DNA of 64,000 bases, from contig JABICL010000034.1 of the NCBI GenBank assembly GCA_018652265.1, forward strand, positions 31,236 through 95,235, written 5' to 3'. This stretch comes from Candidatus Peribacteria bacterium (GTDB taxonomy: Bacteria; Patescibacteriota; Gracilibacteria; Peribacterales; Peribacteraceae). The first letter of the stretch is position 1. Every line of letters starts with the position of its first letter. A program made the translations under genes and the position numbers. Below the pieces are notes generated by a model. That model was not told the DNA's origin and did not search any database. It saw only the letters and a list, made by a program, of their open reading frames with translations. Shown one piece after another: positions 19,269 to 58,332 of the stretch.

Positions 19269-19349
19269 TAATGAATAATTAAAAATGAATAATGAATAAT
19301 TATGGACTATTTCCTTTATTGTACATTTTTCATTGTACATTTTTCATTT
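19269..19349 (-). repeat. 81-bp cassette: 5 heptamers + 11-bp core + 5 inverted heptamers
   Basis: On - strand: aaatgaa aaatgta caatgaa aaatgta caataaa GGAAATAGTCC ataatta ttcatta ttcattt ttaatta ttcatta. Confidence 0.85.
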
Positions 19350-20545
19350 GTCGTCTTAATAACATTTATATATTGATTTACCATCCTCTCAACAGAAAAT
19401 CTTTCTCTAGCACTTTTTTCTCCATTTCTAGACAGTTTCTCCAAAACTTCTTCTTTCTGAATTTCTGTAATTGCAGCTTTAATTTTATTACTACTTCCTG
19501 CAGGAACAATAATTGAATCCTCCGAGGAGATATGCCTAGAGATTCCACATGCATCTGTACATATAGTAGGAATTCCTCGCATCATTGCTTCGGCAATCAC
19601 TAGTCCAAAAGGATCATTTTCTCTGCTTGGCAAAACCAGACAATCTATCCGATTATAAAATTCTTCTATATTGGGAATTGATTCCACAAGCTCAATTTTT
19701 TGCTGCCCACTTGTTTGTTTTTGTATATTGCAGCGAGAACAGGCTTTTATAAGCTTATTTCTCTCAGGTCCATTTCCAACTATCTCTAGCTCCACATTCG
19801 AAAGATCTTTTATGGCTTCTATAAGCAGATCTACTCCTTTGTCGTAAGTTAAGCGAGAAATACAGCCTATGCGGAAATTTCTAGCTTTCCTAGGGTGAAC
19901 ATTGTTGCTCTCCTCGACCGAGTCCGCCGAGGCGGACGAGTGGAGAGGCGCCTCTCGATTCAGCTCCTTGCTAGGAGCTTCACTCGAGGAAAGCCTTGTT
20001 TCCACTCCATTAGGAATAGAAATCACATCCTCCTCTCTCCACCCCATATCCAAATAAATATCTCTGCTCAGGTCAGATACCGTAACTGTAGTTGCTAGCC
20101 TGCTTAGTTTGCGAAGACGCGGAAGCCATGGATTCCACTTAAGCCATCTTCCTACTTTATCATGTTCGACCCAGATTACTTTTATGTTGTTTTGAATGCA
20201 CCACTCTGTGAGTAGAAGTTTTTCGCTTAGGCTCAACATGAAAACCGTGCTCAGTGTTCCGCGTTCCGCGTTCAGTGCTTCTATAAGCTTTTTCTTCATA
20301 CCTTTCTTCCGCCATAAGAAACTAATTGCATTCCACTTAGTAACTGGCGGGGGATCAATATTCAATTCTTTCATGCGGTCCGCGGTCCGCGGTCCGCGGA
20401 CCGCTCGTAATAGTGTTTTACAATCTCCCAAAAACTCAACTTCATAACCTCTCTCTCCCAGTCCTTTCATTAAACTCAGCGTCTGCACCTCCGCCCCGCC
20501 GAAACGAGATTCAAGTGGAAATCTGGTAAATAGGACTTTCTTCAC
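19316..20545 (-). CDS. Glycosyltransferase family 4 with three in-frame repeat insertions
   Basis: GGAEVQ, IPNGV, SRLTYDKG, DPFGLVIAEAM. Confidence 0.9.
   Translation of the reverse strand: MKKVLFTRFPLESRFGGAEVQTLSLMKGLGERGYEVEFLGDCKTLLRAVRGPRTADRMKELNIDPPPVTKWNAISFLWRKKGMKKKLIEALNAERGTLSTVFMLSLSEKLLLTEWCIQNNIKVIWVEHDKVGRWLKWNPWLPRLRKLSRLATTVTVSDLSRDIYLDMGWREEDVISIPNGVETRLSSSEAPSKELNREAPLHSSASADSVEESNNVHPRKARNFRIGCISRLTYDKGVDLLIEAIKDLSNVELEIVGNGPERNKLIKACSRCNIQKQTSGQQKIELVESIPNIEEFYNRIDCLVLPSRENDPFGLVIAEAMMRGIPTICTDACGISRHISSEDSIIVPAGSSNKIKAAITEIQKEEVLEKLSRNGEKSARERFSVERMVNQYINVIKTTNEKCTMKNVQ
19884..19994 (-). repeat. In-frame palindromic element (family A), 111 bp
   Basis: GCTTTCCT...AGGAAAGC termini; encodes LSSSEAPSKELNREAPLHSSASADSVEESNNVHPRKA. 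Confidence 0.9.
20247..20280. repeat. In-frame degenerate heptamer run
   Basis: gtgctca gtgttcc gcgttcc gcgttca gtgctt; peptide LNAERGTLS. Confidence 0.65.
20375..20404. repeat. In-frame heptamer run (GCGGTCC)n
   Basis: Encodes AVRGPRTADR; same unit as 38841-38870. Confidence 0.85.
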
Positions 20546-30608: not shown

Positions 30609-31808
30609 ATGAAAACCATTCTACTCATCTCCCCCTATTGGAAAGAGCCGCATCGTTGGATGGTAAGTTCTGTAAAACTTGCAGAGCTTTGGCAAAGAAT
30701 GGGATATAAAGTAGTTGTTGTATGTATGGGGGCGAAAACAGAGAAAGAAGTAGTCTCGGAAACTCTCACTATTTATAGGGTGTGGGATTTCTTTTTGCCA
30801 GACCCTTTAAACTATGGAATATCTCCAGGATTTTTCTTTAAAGTTTTAAGGGTTTTAAAAAACGAAAAGCCAGACATCGTAATTGTAAATAAGATTCTTT
30901 TCTGGACTTCTTTGATTGTTCCTTGGCTTAGAATTCTTGGAAAAAAGCCAATCGTTACTACGGATGCACTTGTAGGAGTTACCTGGCAGCCTAGAGGAAT
31001 AATTCCAAAAGTCATTATGTCTATTGGAGGATGGACGGCTGGATGGAAAGTAATGCTTTTTGCCAAAAAATTAGTATTTTTTCATCCGCAGCCGGATAAG
31101 ATTTTGAAAATGATGGGGGTTTATGGAAAATCAATTGTGATTCCTACGGGGATAGATAGTCGAGCTTTCCTTAACAAGCTCTCCTCGAGTGAGTCCGCCA
31201 GCGGGCGGACGAATCGAGAGGCGCCTCTCCACTCGTCCGCTAAAGCGGACTCGGTCGAGGAGAGTTACAATATTCATGCGAGGAAAGCTCAAACCGTGAC
31301 TTATGTTGGACGATTAGAATCTGTAAAAGGTGTAGATGATTTTCTCGCAGCGACAGTGCCTCTAAAAAAAGATTATCCAGATCTAAATATTCAAGTTGTT
31401 GGATATTGTAAGCCAGGGAATACGATCGTAAGGCAATATGAAGGTAGCGTGAAATTCACAGGATTGCGTGATGATATTCCAGAGATTCTAAGTAGCTCAG
31501 ATATATTCGTCTTACCAAGTTATAGTGAAGGCCTTAGTAATGCTCTCATGGAAGCTATGTCTTCTAGGTGTGCATGTATTGCTACCGGTGTAGGCGGTAA
31601 TAAATATTTAATAGAAGACTCAGTATCTGGATTACTATTTAAGCCAGGGGATATCGAGGCTCTTAGATCTCATGTAAGAAGCCTGATAGACAATCCTTCA
31701 AGGATAGAGGGATTAGGAAATGCAGCCAGGGCCCGCATAGAGGATATGTTTGACTGGAGCGTAATCGAGAGTAAATATGCTGAACTTTTTAACGAGCGGG
31801 CCAATTAA
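30609..31808 (+). CDS. Glycosyltransferase family 4 with in-frame palindromic insertion
   Basis: IPTGID, YVGRLESVKG, SEGLSNALMEAM. Confidence 0.9.
   Translation: MKTILLISPYWKEPHRWMVSSVKLAELWQRMGYKVVVVCMGAKTEKEVVSETLTIYRVWDFFLPDPLNYGISPGFFFKVLRVLKNEKPDIVIVNKILFWTSLIVPWLRILGKKPIVTTDALVGVTWQPRGIIPKVIMSIGGWTAGWKVMLFAKKLVFFHPQPDKILKMMGVYGKSIVIPTGIDSRAFLNKLSSSESASGRTNREAPLHSSAKADSVEESYNIHARKAQTVTYVGRLESVKGVDDFLAATVPLKKDYPDLNIQVVGYCKPGNTIVRQYEGSVKFTGLRDDIPEILSSSDIFVLPSYSEGLSNALMEAMSSRCACIATGVGGNKYLIEDSVSGLLFKPGDIEALRSHVRSLIDNPSRIEGLGNAARARIEDMFDWSVIESKYAELFNERAN
31162..31290 (+). repeat. In-frame palindromic element (family A), 129 bp
   Basis: GAGCTTTCCT...AGGAAAGCTC termini; encodes AFLNKLSSSESASGRTNREAPLHSSAKADSVEESYNIHARKA. 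Confidence 0.9.
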
Positions 31809-34239: not shown

Positions 34240-34965
34240 TTAAATATTTTTCACAATCTCTTCAGCCCTCTCAAGAGCCTCAAAAGTCCCTGCGTCTATC
34301 CAGTCCTTTTCGATAACAGTAGCAGTTAATTCGTTGCGATCTAGATATGCCTTGCTTACATCTGTAATTTCTAATTCTCCACGATCAGATGGATTAAGAG
34401 TTTTTATAATCTCAAAACAATCTCCTGCAAACAGATAACATCCAGTCACTGCTAAATTAGACTTCGGGGTTTCAGGTTTCTCTTCAAGCGATATCACTTC
34501 ACTGATCGCGGATCGCGGATCGCGGATCGCGGTTTCTGCTACTCCAAATCTCTCTGGATCATCTACTTCTTTTAGAAATAGATGTCCTCCATTTCCTTCG
34601 AAAGCTTTTATATCTTCAGATAAATTGTTTGCGAAAATATTATCGCCAAGCATGGCACACACAGGCTCTTCGTCTGCAAAAGATTCTGCAAGTGCCAGAG
34701 CATGAGCTATTCCTTTTGGCTCATCCTGAATTCTGTATGTGAAATCACAACCAAACTTTGCTCCAGATCCCAAAAATTGCATAAAGTCTCCTGCGAATGT
34801 GGGGCCTGTAATTAGCATAATATCTGTGATTCCTGCATCTAGTAGAACTTTGAGTGGATAGTGAATAAGTGGCTTGCCACCGACCTTTAGTAGACTCTTG
34901 TGAGTAGTGTCTGTAAGAGGCTTGAGCCTAGTTCCCGATCCGCCGCAGATAAGAATTCCTTTCAT
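34240..34965 (-). CDS. rmlA: Glucose-1-phosphate thymidylyltransferase-like sugar nucleotidyltransferase
   Basis: MKGILICGGSGTRLKP, LGDN, EEKP, RGELEITD, WIDAGT; the extension to 35097 in the ORF track is repeat-derived. Confidence 0.85.
   Translation of the reverse strand: MKGILICGGSGTRLKPLTDTTHKSLLKVGGKPLIHYPLKVLLDAGITDIMLITGPTFAGDFMQFLGSGAKFGCDFTYRIQDEPKGIAHALALAESFADEEPVCAMLGDNIFANNLSEDIKAFEGNGGHLFLKEVDDPERFGVAETAIRDPRSAISEVISLEEKPETPKSNLAVTGCYLFAGDCFEIIKTLNPSDRGELEITDVSKAYLDRNELTATVIEKDWIDAGTFEALERAEEIVKNI
34504..34531. repeat. In-frame (GATCGCG)x4
   Basis: Encodes AIRDPRSAI in the hairpin turn between FGVAE and VISLEEKP. Confidence 0.9.
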
Positions 34966-35015
34966 AGTGTCGACATTATAACACTCCGCTCGCGTGCTTA
35001 AGGTGGTATTTCGCT

Positions 35016-35122
35016 TAGGTGGGAGCCAAGTCGCTCTCCTCGAGTGAGTTGTGCTGCCTCTCGACGTCCGCCTGTGGCGGACGCTCGAGGAAAGCACAAC
35101 GAATCGAGAGGTGTCGAAGCAT
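35016..35122 (+). repeat. Intergenic compound A-in-B element (5'-truncated relative of 42210)
   Basis: TAGGTGGGAGCC-AAGTC-GCTCTCCTCGAGTGAGTTGTGCTGCCTCTCGA...GAATCGAGAG-GTGTCGAAGCAT. Confidence 0.85.
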
Positions 35123-35182
35123 CACTAGAAAATCAGAAATAATATGATGTTTTTTTAGGAAAAAGCACCTATTCTAATAATC

Positions 35183-42209: not shown

Positions 42210-42386
42210 TGTCATGCTGCCTGCCCGCCGAAGTCCGCCGCGGCGGACGTAGGCGGGAGCCAAATAGCTTTCCTCGAGTGAGTTGTGCTGCCTCTCGACT
42301 TTCGCCTGCGGCGAAAGCTTCCTCCTTCGCTAAAGCTACGGACGACAGGCGAGGAAAGCACAACGAATCGAGAGGTGTCGAAGCAT
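42210..42386 (+). repeat. Multiply nested compound palindromic element
   Basis: Family B ends split by a CCTG-hairpin (42220-42257); contains a family A element that is itself interrupted by a second CCTG-hairpin (42320-42349). Confidence 0.9.
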
Positions 42387-42394
42387 TATTTGCA

Positions 42395-50184: not shown

Positions 50185-51435
50185 TCAAGTTTGAAAAAAC
50201 TTTAAATAATTTTCTATCTGTTTTTCTAGAGAAAACTTTTCTTCAATGAGTTTTCTGCCTGCCTTTCCCATTTCTATTGCTCTATTTCGATCAGAAAGTA
50301 GGTAGTCTAATTTTTTTGCAAATGTTTTAGTATCAAATGGATCTACGATAAATCCGGTTTGCTCATCTAGAATCAATTCTTTCGATCCTCCATAGTGAGT
50401 TGCAATTACTGGCTTTCCAAGTGCCATAGCTTCTAGATTTACAGTAGGAAAAGAGTCAAAGCATATAGATGGGGTAACACATATGTCACAATTAGATATT
50501 GCTTCTATGAATTCTTTTCTCCTGAGCTTTCCTGTGAATTTTATTTTGTCTACCAAATCTTCTGAATGTCTATATTTATTTGTAAGAGCTTCTGCTTTTG
50601 ATTTATCTCCTGCAATTACAATTGATGCCTCTGGATGAGAGCTTTTGATGAGTCTAAAAGCATCAAGTAGCTGATATAAGCCTTTGTCTCGGTTCATTCG
50701 ACCTCCGAAGAAGATAGTTTGTTTATCTGAGGCTTTCCTCGAGTGAGGCTCTTCGCAAAGAGCTGAATCGAGAGGCGCCTCTCCACTCGTCCGCCTGAGG
50801 ACGGACTCGGTCGAGGAGGGCAGATCTATGCCATTGTAAATTACATCATCAATTTCTATGCCATTTGCTTCCAATGCATCTTTTAGCGCATGGCTTACTG
50901 CTATTTTTACATCTACTTTCTTAAGAATGCGTTTTATAAAGAAGTTTCTTAGTGGATTCCAAAGTATTCCAGCTTGTTTTATGTGATCTATGAAACTTAG
51001 TTTGTAATTGAAGTTTTTTAGATATTTATCCGTTGCAAGTCTTCCATAAGAAAAGCTCATTACGTCATGAAATGTGATTACAACTTTTTTTGCATGCTTC
51101 TTTGCAATTTTCAGTGAATTATATGTAAGAAGCTGATGCACATTATGTGCATGGACAATGTCATATGATCCATTTTCCTTGAAAAACTTTTTTATAAGCT
51201 TAGAAGCTTTAGGATTCCAAATACTTAAGTAAGCTCTCCATCTCGAATCATAAGATATTGGTATATATGAGATTTTGTATGGACTACTAATCGCTAATCG
51301 CTTACCGCTAATCGCTGTCAAAACATCTACCTCATGTCCCTGCTCAACATACCCTTCAGCAAGTTGAGATGCTATTTGCCCTGCTCCTCCATCACAATTT
51401 GGAGGGAAATCATCATTTAGAATTAAAATTTTCAT
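50185..51435 (-). CDS. Glycosyltransferase family 4 with two in-frame insertions
   Basis: GGAG, HAHN, IYNGID, GGRMNRDKG, DSFPTVNLEAM. Confidence 0.9.
   Translation of the reverse strand: MKILILNDDFPPNCDGGAGQIASQLAEGYVEQGHEVDVLTAISGKRLAISSPYKISYIPISYDSRWRAYLSIWNPKASKLIKKFFKENGSYDIVHAHNVHQLLTYNSLKIAKKHAKKVVITFHDVMSFSYGRLATDKYLKNFNYKLSFIDHIKQAGILWNPLRNFFIKRILKKVDVKIAVSHALKDALEANGIEIDDVIYNGIDLPSSTESVLRRTSGEAPLDSALCEEPHSRKASDKQTIFFGGRMNRDKGLYQLLDAFRLIKSSHPEASIVIAGDKSKAEALTNKYRHSEDLVDKIKFTGKLRRKEFIEAISNCDICVTPSICFDSFPTVNLEAMALGKPVIATHYGGSKELILDEQTGFIVDPFDTKTFAKKLDYLLSDRNRAIEMGKAGRKLIEEKFSLEKQIENYLKFFQT
50732..50821 (+). repeat. In-frame family A element, opposite orientation relative to the host gene compared with the other GT4 copies
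   Basis: GCTTTCCTCGAGTGAGGCTCTTCGCAAAGAGCTGAATCGAGAGGCGCCTCTCCACTCGTCCG...GGTCGAGGAGGGC; read as PSSTESVLRRTSGEAPLDSALCEEPHSRKA. Confidence 0.9.
51287..51316. repeat. In-frame (CTAATCG)n run
   Basis: ctaatcg ctaatcg cttaccg ctaatcg; encodes AISGKRLAIS. Confidence 0.8.
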
Positions 51436-56427: not shown

Positions 56428-58332
56428 ATGACAAATAATGATACGTACATACTTGGCCTCTCCTGTTATTACCATGATAGTGGTGTTGTACTACTTAAAA
56501 ATGGAGTAATAGTTGCAGCTGCTCAAGAAGAGAGGTTTACCAGAAAAAAACATGATGATGGATTTCCATCCGAAGCAATTTATTATTGCTTAGAAGAGGC
56601 TGGAATTTCAAAAGCTGAACTTAACTATGTGATTTTTTATGATAAGCCCCTTTCGAAGTTTGAAAGGATTTTGATGACTACTATAGATGCTTGGCCAAGG
56701 GGATATAGGCAAATGCTTCAGTCTCTATCACTTTGGCTTAGTAAGAAGCTATGGATGAAACAGCAAATTGCGAAAGAATTAGATTTTGATGGAGAAATAT
56801 TATTCTCGGAGCATCATATGTCTCATGCAGCCTCTACATTCTTTAGTTCAGCATTTTCCGATTCTGCAGTTGTAACTCTAGATGGAGTAGGAGAGTGGGA
56901 AACTACTGGAATAGGATATGGTTCTACTTCGCAAGCTATGCAGAATGCCTCGAATTTATGTTTAACACATGTTATTCATTTCCCTCATTCTCTAGGACTT
57001 TTGTATTCAGCGGTTACTGGATATCTGGGATTCAAGGTAAATAGTGCAGAGTACAAAGTAATGGGACTAGCTCCATATGGAGTAGTAGATGGGAACCCAG
57101 AGAAGTATATGCCAGCTATGCGTAAGCTTATAGATATAAAAGAAGATGGAAGCTATAAGCTGAATATGAAATATTTTGCATATGAATATGGTCTAAGGAT
57201 GACAAATAGACATTTTCATAAGCTTTTTGGGGGTCCACCTAGAAAAGCAGAGTCAGATCTTGAGCAAAAGCACAAAGATATAGCGGCAGCATTACAAATG
57301 ATTACAGAAGAAGCTGTTATGAAGATAGTTCGATATGCTTACAAGCTGCATCCAAGTGAAAATCTATGTCTTTCCGGAGGAGTCGCACTAAATTGTGTAG
57401 CTAATGGAAAAGTTCTCCGAGAAGGACCATTCAAAAATATATTTATACAACCAGCTTCTGGGGATGCAGGCGGAGCACTAGGTGCTGTTCAGTATCTTTG
57501 GCATGCAGTACTGGGTAATCCGAAGACGCAGGAGACTTGTATGAAGAATGTTTACTTTGGACCGGAGTTTGAAGATCAAGAGATTGAAAAGTATTTACTA
57601 CAGTATTCTAGGCAAACAAGCTTTCCTCGAGCGAGTTGTGCTGCCTCTCGACATTCGCCTTCGGCGAATGCTCGAGGAAAGCACAACGAGTTGAGAGGCA
57701 ATGAACTTAAATGGAGAAAATTTGGTAGCAATGAGGAATTAACCGAGGAAGTTTCCTCTCTAATAGATGGAGAAAATGTAATTGGATGGTTCCAAGGTCG
57801 AATGGAATTTGGTCCACGGGCACTTGGCAATAGATCGATAATTGCAGATGCAAGGAGAAAGGAAAATTGGCAGAAAGTGAATCTAAAAATTAAGTTCAGA
57901 GAATCTTTTAGACCTTTTGCACCTTCTGTTCTAGAAGAGCGTGCGTCTGATTGGTTTGAATTAGATGTTCCAAGTCCTTATATGTTACTTGTCGCAGATG
58001 TAAAAGAAGAGAAGCGTGCAGAAATACCTGCGATAACACATGTAGATGGATCTGCTCGAATACAAACTGTAAATAGAGAAGAGAATTCTGTTTACTATGA
58101 CCTCATAAAGAAATTCTACGAGAAGACAGGATGTCCTGTAGTTATAAATACGTCGTTTAATGTTCGTGGAGAGCCTATAGTCTGTTCTCCTAAGGATGCA
58201 TTGTATTGCTTCTTAAATACAGAGATGGATTATTTGGTTATGGGATCTTATGTTCTTGCGAAGAAAGACAATGTGCATCTAATAGATTCTTCTCTTAGAG
58301 ATAAGTATCTTGATGCATTCGATCTAGATTAG
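56428..58332 (+). CDS. Carbamoyltransferase (NodU/CmcH/SxtI family) with two in-frame insertions
   Basis: YYHDS, AAAQEERF, EHHMSHAAS, EYKVMGLAPYG, GRMEFGPRALGNRS, RESFRPFAP, NTSFN. Confidence 0.95.
   Translation: MTNNDTYILGLSCYYHDSGVVLLKNGVIVAAAQEERFTRKKHDDGFPSEAIYYCLEEAGISKAELNYVIFYDKPLSKFERILMTTIDAWPRGYRQMLQSLSLWLSKKLWMKQQIAKELDFDGEILFSEHHMSHAASTFFSSAFSDSAVVTLDGVGEWETTGIGYGSTSQAMQNASNLCLTHVIHFPHSLGLLYSAVTGYLGFKVNSAEYKVMGLAPYGVVDGNPEKYMPAMRKLIDIKEDGSYKLNMKYFAYEYGLRMTNRHFHKLFGGPPRKAESDLEQKHKDIAAALQMITEEAVMKIVRYAYKLHPSENLCLSGGVALNCVANGKVLREGPFKNIFIQPASGDAGGALGAVQYLWHAVLGNPKTQETCMKNVYFGPEFEDQEIEKYLLQYSRQTSFPRASCAASRHSPSANARGKHNELRGNELKWRKFGSNEELTEEVSSLIDGENVIGWFQGRMEFGPRALGNRSIIADARRKENWQKVNLKIKFRESFRPFAPSVLEERASDWFELDVPSPYMLLVADVKEEKRAEIPAITHVDGSARIQTVNREENSVYYDLIKKFYEKTGCPVVINTSFNVRGEPIVCSPKDALYCFLNTEMDYLVMGSYVLAKKDNVHLIDSSLRDKYLDAFDLD
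56922..56945 (-). repeat. In-frame 24-bp GTA/GAA-type mini hairpin
   Basis: - strand TTCTGC-ATA-GCTTGC-GAA-GTAGAA; resembles 42320-42349. Confidence 0.5.
57620..57699 (+). repeat. In-frame family A (nested subtype) element
   Basis: Closely similar to intergenic copies at 35033 and 42267; encodes SFPRASCAASRHSPSANARGKHNELRG. Confidence 0.92.

Follow-up and report, generated by a model that had tools for sequence, protein, structure and literature searches.

We analysed an 80-nt GC-rich segment at positions 57620 to 57699 of a 64,000-nt stretch of a Candidatus Peribacteria genome (contig JABICL010000034.1; hereafter the window), located within a carbamoyltransferase gene. The segment is likely to be a copy of a lineage-restricted, hairpin-forming, non-coding repeat that entered a working gene at the linker between its two domains and is carried there in frame. 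The insertion is similarly likely to add roughly 27 to 30 residues of disordered surface loop to the protein. The window belongs to a metagenome-assembled genome (MAG) of 1.07 Mb in 48 contigs (100% marker completeness, GC content about 0.38), in which iterated nhmmer searches located 65 loci of the repeat. An earlier note on this DNA had proposed that non-coding repeat DNA here has become part of a reading frame, and this is supported at the level of the DNA and the open reading frame (ORF).

The host gene (56428..58332, plus strand) is an uninterrupted ORF encoding a TobZ/NodU/GdmN-type carbamoyltransferase of 634 amino acids (aa). Its product has the TobZ/NodU architecture of a Kae1-like N domain followed by a YrdC-like C domain: Carbam_trans_N (PF02543) covers residues 8-353 (1.6e-90, 304 bits) and Carbam_trans_C (PF16861) residues 445-612 (2.3e-76, 255 bits), and the matches in the PDB include TobZ, GdmN and a novobiocin carbamoyltransferase (NovN-type). 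The GC-rich segment lies as described between these two Pfam domains. The core of the element (57620..57699, plus strand, in-frame residues ~398-424) reads GCTTTCCTCGAGCGAGTTGTGCTGCCTCTCGACATTCGCCTTCGGCGAATGCTCGAGGAAAGCACAACGAGTTGAGAGGC, and the peptide reading of 57620-57699 in the ORF 56428-58332(+) is SFPRASCAASRHSPSANARGKHNELRG.

Homologues of the host protein lack this segment. In a 16-sequence alignment, a gap of 25 to 31 columns at residues ~401-431 was found between the YFGP and IGWFQGRME motifs in all 15 homologues, where the earlier note had predicted one of about 27 residues; the gap-bearing homologues include the 91% identical P0002. Lengths of 578-625 aa are found among the best database homologues, as against 634 aa here. 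Matches in 14 related genomes stop near residue 392 and restart at 411-438, and matches to the solved TobZ/GdmN/NovN-type structures are interrupted at 384/437. The closest view of an empty site comes from a sister-lineage metagenome contig (L038), which carries a 595-aa gene without the element, whose flanks match the window at 85% and 90% identity. The net length difference from this gene is 90 nt, most of which is the 80-nt core, with ten more bases in the variable linker. An AlphaFold2 model built from the 16-row alignment (mean pLDDT 76) places residues 400-424 as coil with pLDDT <50 between a helix at 383-395 and the C domain. Residues 171-177 (window 56938-56958) are a second private insertion, TSQAMQN, which is also missing in 15/15 homologues and has pLDDT <50 at residues 171-173; it is outside the repeat family.

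It is very unlikely that the insertion inactivated the carbamoyltransferase and that the open frame is merely that of a young pseudogene. The insertion is younger than the sister-lineage split, so decay might not yet show, but both host domains still score strongly, the family-invariant columns of the alignment are retained and the site is a variable linker. Moreover, comparable insertions occur in the essential genes LeuRS, CarA, KsgA and a GatA-like amidase, and one insertion has been kept between lineages whose flanks are 78-93% identical.

An assembly or binning artefact, in which the assembler threaded a repeat into the gene, is scarcely credible. The MAG is fragmented and contains contig pairs that are 89-91% identical, and in four public marine runs the Logan contigs are interrupted at the repeat, which is usual for repeats. 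Nevertheless, each junction is covered by contigs from separate studies: the upstream gene-element junction by a single contig spanning 57406-57654 (run X6), and the junction of the element with the downstream part of the gene by contigs spanning 57673-58100 (X1) and 57670-58100 (X3), all with 0 differences; X6, X1 and X3 come from three other studies. The 634-aa protein cluster is present on 13 contigs, and the frame is exactly preserved. The edges of the core are defined by the metagenome contigs of other copies, which cease matching at 57618/57619 and 57698-57700 (Logan).

The element is built as one unit nested, inverted, in the loop of another, an arrangement that the earlier note had recognised and that four interleaved inverted-repeat pairs bear out. 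The outer unit begins with the 5' arm GCTTTCCTCGAGCGAG (57620..57635, plus strand), a conserved arm whose positions 12 and 13 pair with covarying partners, and ends with the 3' arm CGAGTTGAGAGGC (57688..57699, plus strand), identified by arm conservation, pairing and covariation. The inner unit (57644..57682, minus strand) lies in the loop of the outer unit with arms CCTCTCGAC ... GCTCGAGGAAAGC, which form inverted-repeat pairs I1 and I2 and are the same arms as those of the 'double' units described below. At its centre is the variable hairpin CATTCGCC-TTC-GGCGAATG (57652..57670, plus strand; pair I4), in which 4 stem pairs show two-sided changes across copies. One of the inverted-repeat pairs is a perfect 13-nt pair, GCTTTCCTCGAGC/GCTCGAGGAAAGC. 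Folded as RNA in the two orientations, the element reaches -41.8 and -37.7 kcal/mol (z = -4.7 and -4.4). Signatures of 28 nt and 17 nt taken from the element each occur at 3 places in the window, as against 0 expected from 100 shuffles.

Two close siblings of the element are present in the window and both are intergenic, as had been claimed: one at 35033..35112 (plus strand) between divergent ORFs, the other at 42267..42376 (plus strand) between convergent ORFs, each recognised by its match to the family that we call family A. The listed GTG start of the ORF 34240-35097(-) falls within the first sibling. The three central hairpins of the element and its siblings differ by compensated changes, so the reported covariation holds. 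The second sibling carries an extra 30 nt past its central hairpin (42319-42348), which is the same in one further family A copy (C42:1377-1488), and a 28-nt look-alike of it stands alone at C38:28912-28939; the extra 30 nt may be one more small element within the nested structure. Beyond the 80-nt core the two siblings also share flanks, GGGAGCCAA before and GGTGTCGAAGCAT after (35010-35032 and 35113-35125; 42215-42266 and 42377-42389), and positions 42215-42262 form another GC-rich hairpin. Together, these shared flanks and this hairpin suggest a larger composite repeat.

Across the 65 loci of the genome the common unit consists of an arm GCTYTCCTCGAS-YGAG, a variable hairpin and an arm CGAR-T-S-GAGAGG. 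A regular expression in which four variable arm positions were left free recovered 68 units, in all of which arm position 12 is paired (C-G 33, G-C 24, G-T 11), as is arm position 13 (C-G 40, T-A 18, T-G 10). Between these two paired positions sit two conserved GA/GA steps, which from their sequence we infer to be tandem G·A pairs that would make the unit strand-specific. The majority of the loci are doubles, in which a unit is followed side by side by an inverted unit over 93-128 nt, and these fold to a single long hairpin; the double at window 31167-31274 reaches -64.9 kcal/mol (z = -8.8). Family A comprises 23 loci (20 of 80 nt, one of 81 nt, and two of 110 nt that have the same extra 30 nt) and shares the design of the element, a unit whose hairpin loop contains an inverted unit. 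A 28-pair structure accounts for family A, with 99.5% of 420 cells paired in 16 copies (15 distinct), against 34-49% in slid controls. Nine of the pairs change on both sides, a count reached in 0 of 500 shuffles. The conserved feature is a nucleic-acid fold (DNA or RNA); no peptide is conserved, since copies of family A occur in every one of the six reading frames.

Long ORFs, 28 in number and all with Pfam families, wholly contain 30 of the 65 loci. The hosts are 6PGD, transketolase, two FemAB proteins, POR, an amidohydrolase, an SDF symporter, LeuRS, a TrxB-like reductase, two Mur ligases, CarA, IleRS, ProC, an amidase, a PyrK-like protein, ComEC, a phosphorylase, TsaE, UvrD, KsgA, a metallophosphoesterase, three GT4 glycosyltransferases of the window and the carbamoyltransferase. 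The ORF proxy gave a genic count of 31, from which we excluded the sibling at 42267-42376, as its 97-aa ORF is spurious and mostly element. CarA and IleRS were each counted twice, on contig pairs that are 89-91% identical. Four such pairs were seen (C6/C7, C14/C20, C19/C45 and C2/C41, over 1.3-2.3 kb); they are either two related strains binned together or recent duplications, and this affects the copy counts. In 4/4 hosts tested (carbamoyltransferase, KsgA, CarA and TrxB) the segment is an insertion relative to solved homologues: in CarA it replaces 4 residues by 31 (net +27), and in TrxB 28 residues stand where solved homologues have 2. Inter-domain linkers are the sites in the carbamoyltransferase, CarA and the three GT4 genes.

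The genic share of loci, 46%, is well below the ~89% of the genome that is coding DNA by the same ORF proxy, and the intergenic loci lie near gene ends, mainly 3' ends. When the 23 family A copies were read in each of the six frames, 17, 6, 14, 23, 13 and 15 were open, and the 9 genic copies use all three sense and all three antisense phases; the earlier description of the element as read in another frame was thus correct and, if anything, understated. Very probably, selection has let through only frame-preserving, stop-free insertions in tolerant loops. Some in-frame copies seem to outlast substantial divergence: the CarA copy is 80/80 identical between C14 and C20 with flanks 78-93% identical, and the IleRS copy is 93/96 identical between its two contigs, a pattern that gene conversion or the binning of two strains could also give.

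The three GT4 glycosyltransferase genes belong to an O-antigen-like region of the window, and nhmmer and Pfam place a double in frame in each: at 19903..19996 in the gene 19316-20545 (minus), between its two domains, at 31167..31274 in the gene 30609-31808 (plus), and at 50728..50828 in the gene 50185-51435 (minus). Each double lies at the linker between two Rossmann domains, and the similar reading frame of two of them raises the possibility that gene duplication passed the element on.

Could the element instead be removed or bypassed at the RNA level, as an intron-like sequence or by a translational hop, leaving a protein without the extra loop? The very stable RNA fold of the element in either orientation would suit such a process, but we regard it as highly improbable. 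All 30 genic loci keep an open frame, although frame and stop codons would be irrelevant if the element were removed, and the copies work in six frames and both orientations. Nor does any of the 19 same-strand neighbour pairs around intergenic loci look like the halves of one gene: 16 have different complete families, one consists of two complete CAP-domain genes, and two lack a family on one or both sides. Finally, no Rfam family fits the element, as gathering thresholds returned only a tRNA elsewhere and E-value thresholds only microRNA-type hairpins far below threshold.

Several observations count against the insertion of a translated repeat copy into the carbamoyltransferase. The 80-nt core is not a multiple of 3, and extra bases accompany it to give the net difference of 90 nt. 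No consistent target-site duplication was evident in the flanks of the 65 loci, and the empty site of L038 is too diverged to judge. The 80/80 identity of the CarA copies could reflect gene conversion or the binning of two strains instead of selection. Translation of the segment, which we consider very probable, is read from the DNA and the ORF.

The repeat appears restricted to the lineage. BLAST searches of 40 relatives from other genera did not detect family A, and no unit was present in 90 loci of relatives around carbamoyltransferase genes. The exact arm pattern occurs at 20 loci in ~186,000 species genomes, of which 14 are in three Peribacteria/Peribacterales MAGs (locus GC 0.48-0.58). 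Five are in high-GC records of Actinomycetota, Gaiellaceae and Planctomycetota and are taken as chance or unrelated. For 6 of the 13 loci in these Peribacteria genomes, a frame stays open over the whole ~640-nt locus (at least 212 codons), and therefore the in-frame habit is not private to the genome of the window. Two other MAGs, L137 (Babeliales, Dependentiae-type) and L141 (unclassified, non-Peribacteria), each contain one exact match to the unit pattern that has a proper hairpin; this hints at spread across phyla or may be chance.

A candidate for the factor behind this repeat is a small nuclease gene enclosed by its units. In the genome of the window, two rare single units, one forward (C38:44932-44979) and one inverted (C38:45261-45311), enclose an 86-aa ORF (C38:45000-45260, GC 0.30) with a GIY-YIG domain (PF01541, 3.1e-18, residues 6-77). 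The upstream unit ends 20 nt 5' of the start codon and the downstream unit starts directly past the stop codon. The same layout surrounds 86-aa orthologues of 71-76% identity, two in genome G042 (L183 and L188) and one in G041 (L182). In all four orthologues, from three genomes, the unit upstream is thus forward and the one downstream inverted, the latter starting 0-8 nt from the stop. In at least one double (C34:83415) the spacer TTAATGATAATACTG resembles the cassette leader TTATTTGTGATAATATCTA, and from its sequence this spacer could be what an internal deletion of the nuclease gene would leave. Small GIY-YIG homologues are found in 223 of 401 class genomes (E ≤ 1e-10), with a best identity to the 86-aa nuclease of 48% once the window's genome and G283, which is the same genome as G042, are excluded. 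No NCBIfam family matches the nuclease, and the only hit there was a sub-threshold one to a group I intron endonuclease.

The doubles and family A would, by this evidence, be gene-less derivatives of a cassette made of a unit, the 86-aa GIY-YIG gene and an inverted unit. Like the Ssn nucleases with their NTS/SRM hairpins, this nuclease would recognise the unit when it is folded on one DNA strand, and it would be what spreads or maintains the repeat. By analogy with Ssn, we lean slightly towards this combination of a cassette origin, recognition of the folded unit and a nuclease-driven spread or maintenance. The mobility of the repeat itself is inferred. A wider reading, which we offer only tentatively and hold to be less probable, is that RPE-type selfish DNA (see below) in proteins may descend, with the gene lost, from small GIY-YIG nuclease cassettes (Ssn-like or UPF0213-like). 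In this reading a ~90-aa single-strand-specific nuclease would recognise an oriented hairpin unit with tandem G·A pairs and drive the copying of unit doublets to new sites, also within coding DNA. If true, such a nuclease-hairpin partnership would explain the coding palindromes of reduced genomes, here in the Candidate Phyla Radiation (CPR) and perhaps in Rickettsia and Wolbachia.

It is unlikely that a transposase, whether a REP-associated tyrosine transposase (RAYT, Y1_Tnp) or some other, mobilises the repeats and that the GIY-YIG gene lies between units by chance or by its own homing. The inverted doublets of hairpin units do resemble REPINs, Y1_Tnp genes occur in 3/3 other unit-bearing Peribacteria genomes searched, and the units favour gene ends, so that passive flanking of a small gene is possible. 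Yet the genome of the window yielded no Y1_Tnp gene (0 matches to the PF01797 profile; best E 1.5 by tblastn with Peribacteria proteins), the examined Y1_Tnp genes of other Peribacteria are not flanked by units, and the unit-flanked layout recurs in all four orthologous GIY-YIG genes. Two Y1_Tnp domains lie at LeuRS genes: in G041 (L148:1-2673, minus strand) a Y1_Tnp (IS200-like) domain occupies, in frame, residues 279-391 of the 891 encoded by the LeuRS ORF, with the catalytic domain on one side and the editing domain on the other, and in G042 a 233-aa Y1_Tnp gene (L147:1324-2025) adjoins the LeuRS start codon.

The case for the nuclease as partner of the repeat also has points on the other side. 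Only one unit-flanked cassette was found among 7 small GIY-YIG genes in the genome of the window, and among the loci examined the unit-bearing genome G043 has no unit-flanked GIY-YIG gene. The nearest solved relatives of the nuclease are the UPF0213 proteins BH0048 and EF2693 (7e-18). No GIY-YIG nuclease is known to transpose DNA. The SRM consensus HGTCWYN(0-2)YYVSBRHN(0-5)WNVSBRGN(0-2)RNCYNB has 0 matches in the genome of the window, including the 65 loci, where block shuffles gave 0-4. In addition, the Ssn study demonstrates cleavage and an effect on transformation, not mobility (PMC11893778).

The other six small GIY-YIG genes of this genome (79-122 aa; C43:28066-28287, C31:22471-22680, C44:17127-17348, C48:11062-11274, C8:32429-32638 and C34:27462-27683) have different repeat contexts without the cassette arms. 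The C31 gene is flanked by other direct repeats, and the C43 and C44 genes share an upstream palindrome. Several small GIY-YIG genes in relatives have inverted arms of their own of 15-30 nt, as against a maximum of 11 in shuffles. The DUF559 nuclease had 0 matches in the genome of the window.

In its behaviour, the repeat is closest to the Rickettsia palindromic elements (RPE; Ogata et al. 2000/2002), each of which encodes a conserved peptide according to the consulted portion of PMC10969869. Shared features, as far as that text describes them, are a dispersed palindromic repeat in a small genome, a large share of copies in frame in unrelated housekeeping genes, and sites apparently compatible with the protein fold (PMC10969869). 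In contrast to the conserved peptide of RPE, family A uses all six frames. A further difference is that the present elements, of 80-128 nt, have a modular or nested build. The arms here also enclose a nuclease gene, and the consulted part of PMC10969869 mentions no such link.

In its architecture, the closest kinds are the Ssn-SRM pair and the REPIN-RAYT system. In the Ssn study (Chenal et al. 2025, PMC11893778), small cd10448 GIY-YIG proteins bind a flanking hairpin repeat as single-stranded DNA and cut beside it, 42% of Ssn homologues are repeat-flanked on both sides in an insertion-sequence-like layout, and the SRM-rich genomes include Rickettsia, Wolbachia and Neisseria. By the same account, the two systems have in common a GIY-YIG protein that is small and consists of one domain (86 aa here, against 94 aa in SsnA), an oriented hairpin repeat on both the 5' and the 3' side of its gene that has many copies genome-wide (NTS-ssnA-NTS), and a conserved non-palindromic part of the repeat that gives the strand (PMC11893778). 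Unlike Ssn, the nuclease here is nearest to UPF0213 among solved proteins. The words 'in-frame', 'intragenic', 'Patescibacteria' and 'Candidate Phyla' do not occur in the text of PMC11893778. By analogy, the system here would work like the Ssn-SRM pair, and we do not file it as a member.

With REP/REPIN-RAYT systems the repeat shares short imperfect palindromes with a conserved foot, inverted doublets that fold to a long hairpin, and single units that look like decayed remains. REPs are extragenic by definition, whereas 46% of the loci here are intragenic, and neither profile nor tblastn searches detected a RAYT in the genome of the window. Like MITEs (miniature transposable elements with inverted repeats), the repeat is short, non-coding and multi-copy with inverted ends, and it looks like what an internal deletion would make of a longer element that bears a gene. 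It differs from MITEs in that no DDE-type parent was identified and the candidate parent carries a nuclease and not a transposase; a consistent target-site duplication was not seen in the flanks of the 65 loci, the one empty site being too diverged to judge.

A literature search, from which subscription journals and supplements were excluded, returned no paper that connects CPR/Patescibacteria with GIY-YIG cassettes or with repeats of the RPE kind; genomes of CPR or Rickettsia may be listed in the supplementary tables of PMC11893778. The repeat is therefore closest to RPE in behaviour and to Ssn-SRM or REPIN-RAYT in architecture, without the full set of defining features of any of them. It would extend selfish DNA translated within proteins, long a curiosity of Rickettsia, to a candidate-phylum bacterium, and at a high density of ~30 genes in 1 Mb, some of them essential. 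For annotators, it accounts for private loops of 27-37 residues in CPR enzymes and advises caution against calling such loops functional domains. The 86-aa nuclease provides a testable candidate for the cognate enzyme or spreading factor of the repeat, comparable in its setting to the nucleases of the Ssn-SRM pairs.

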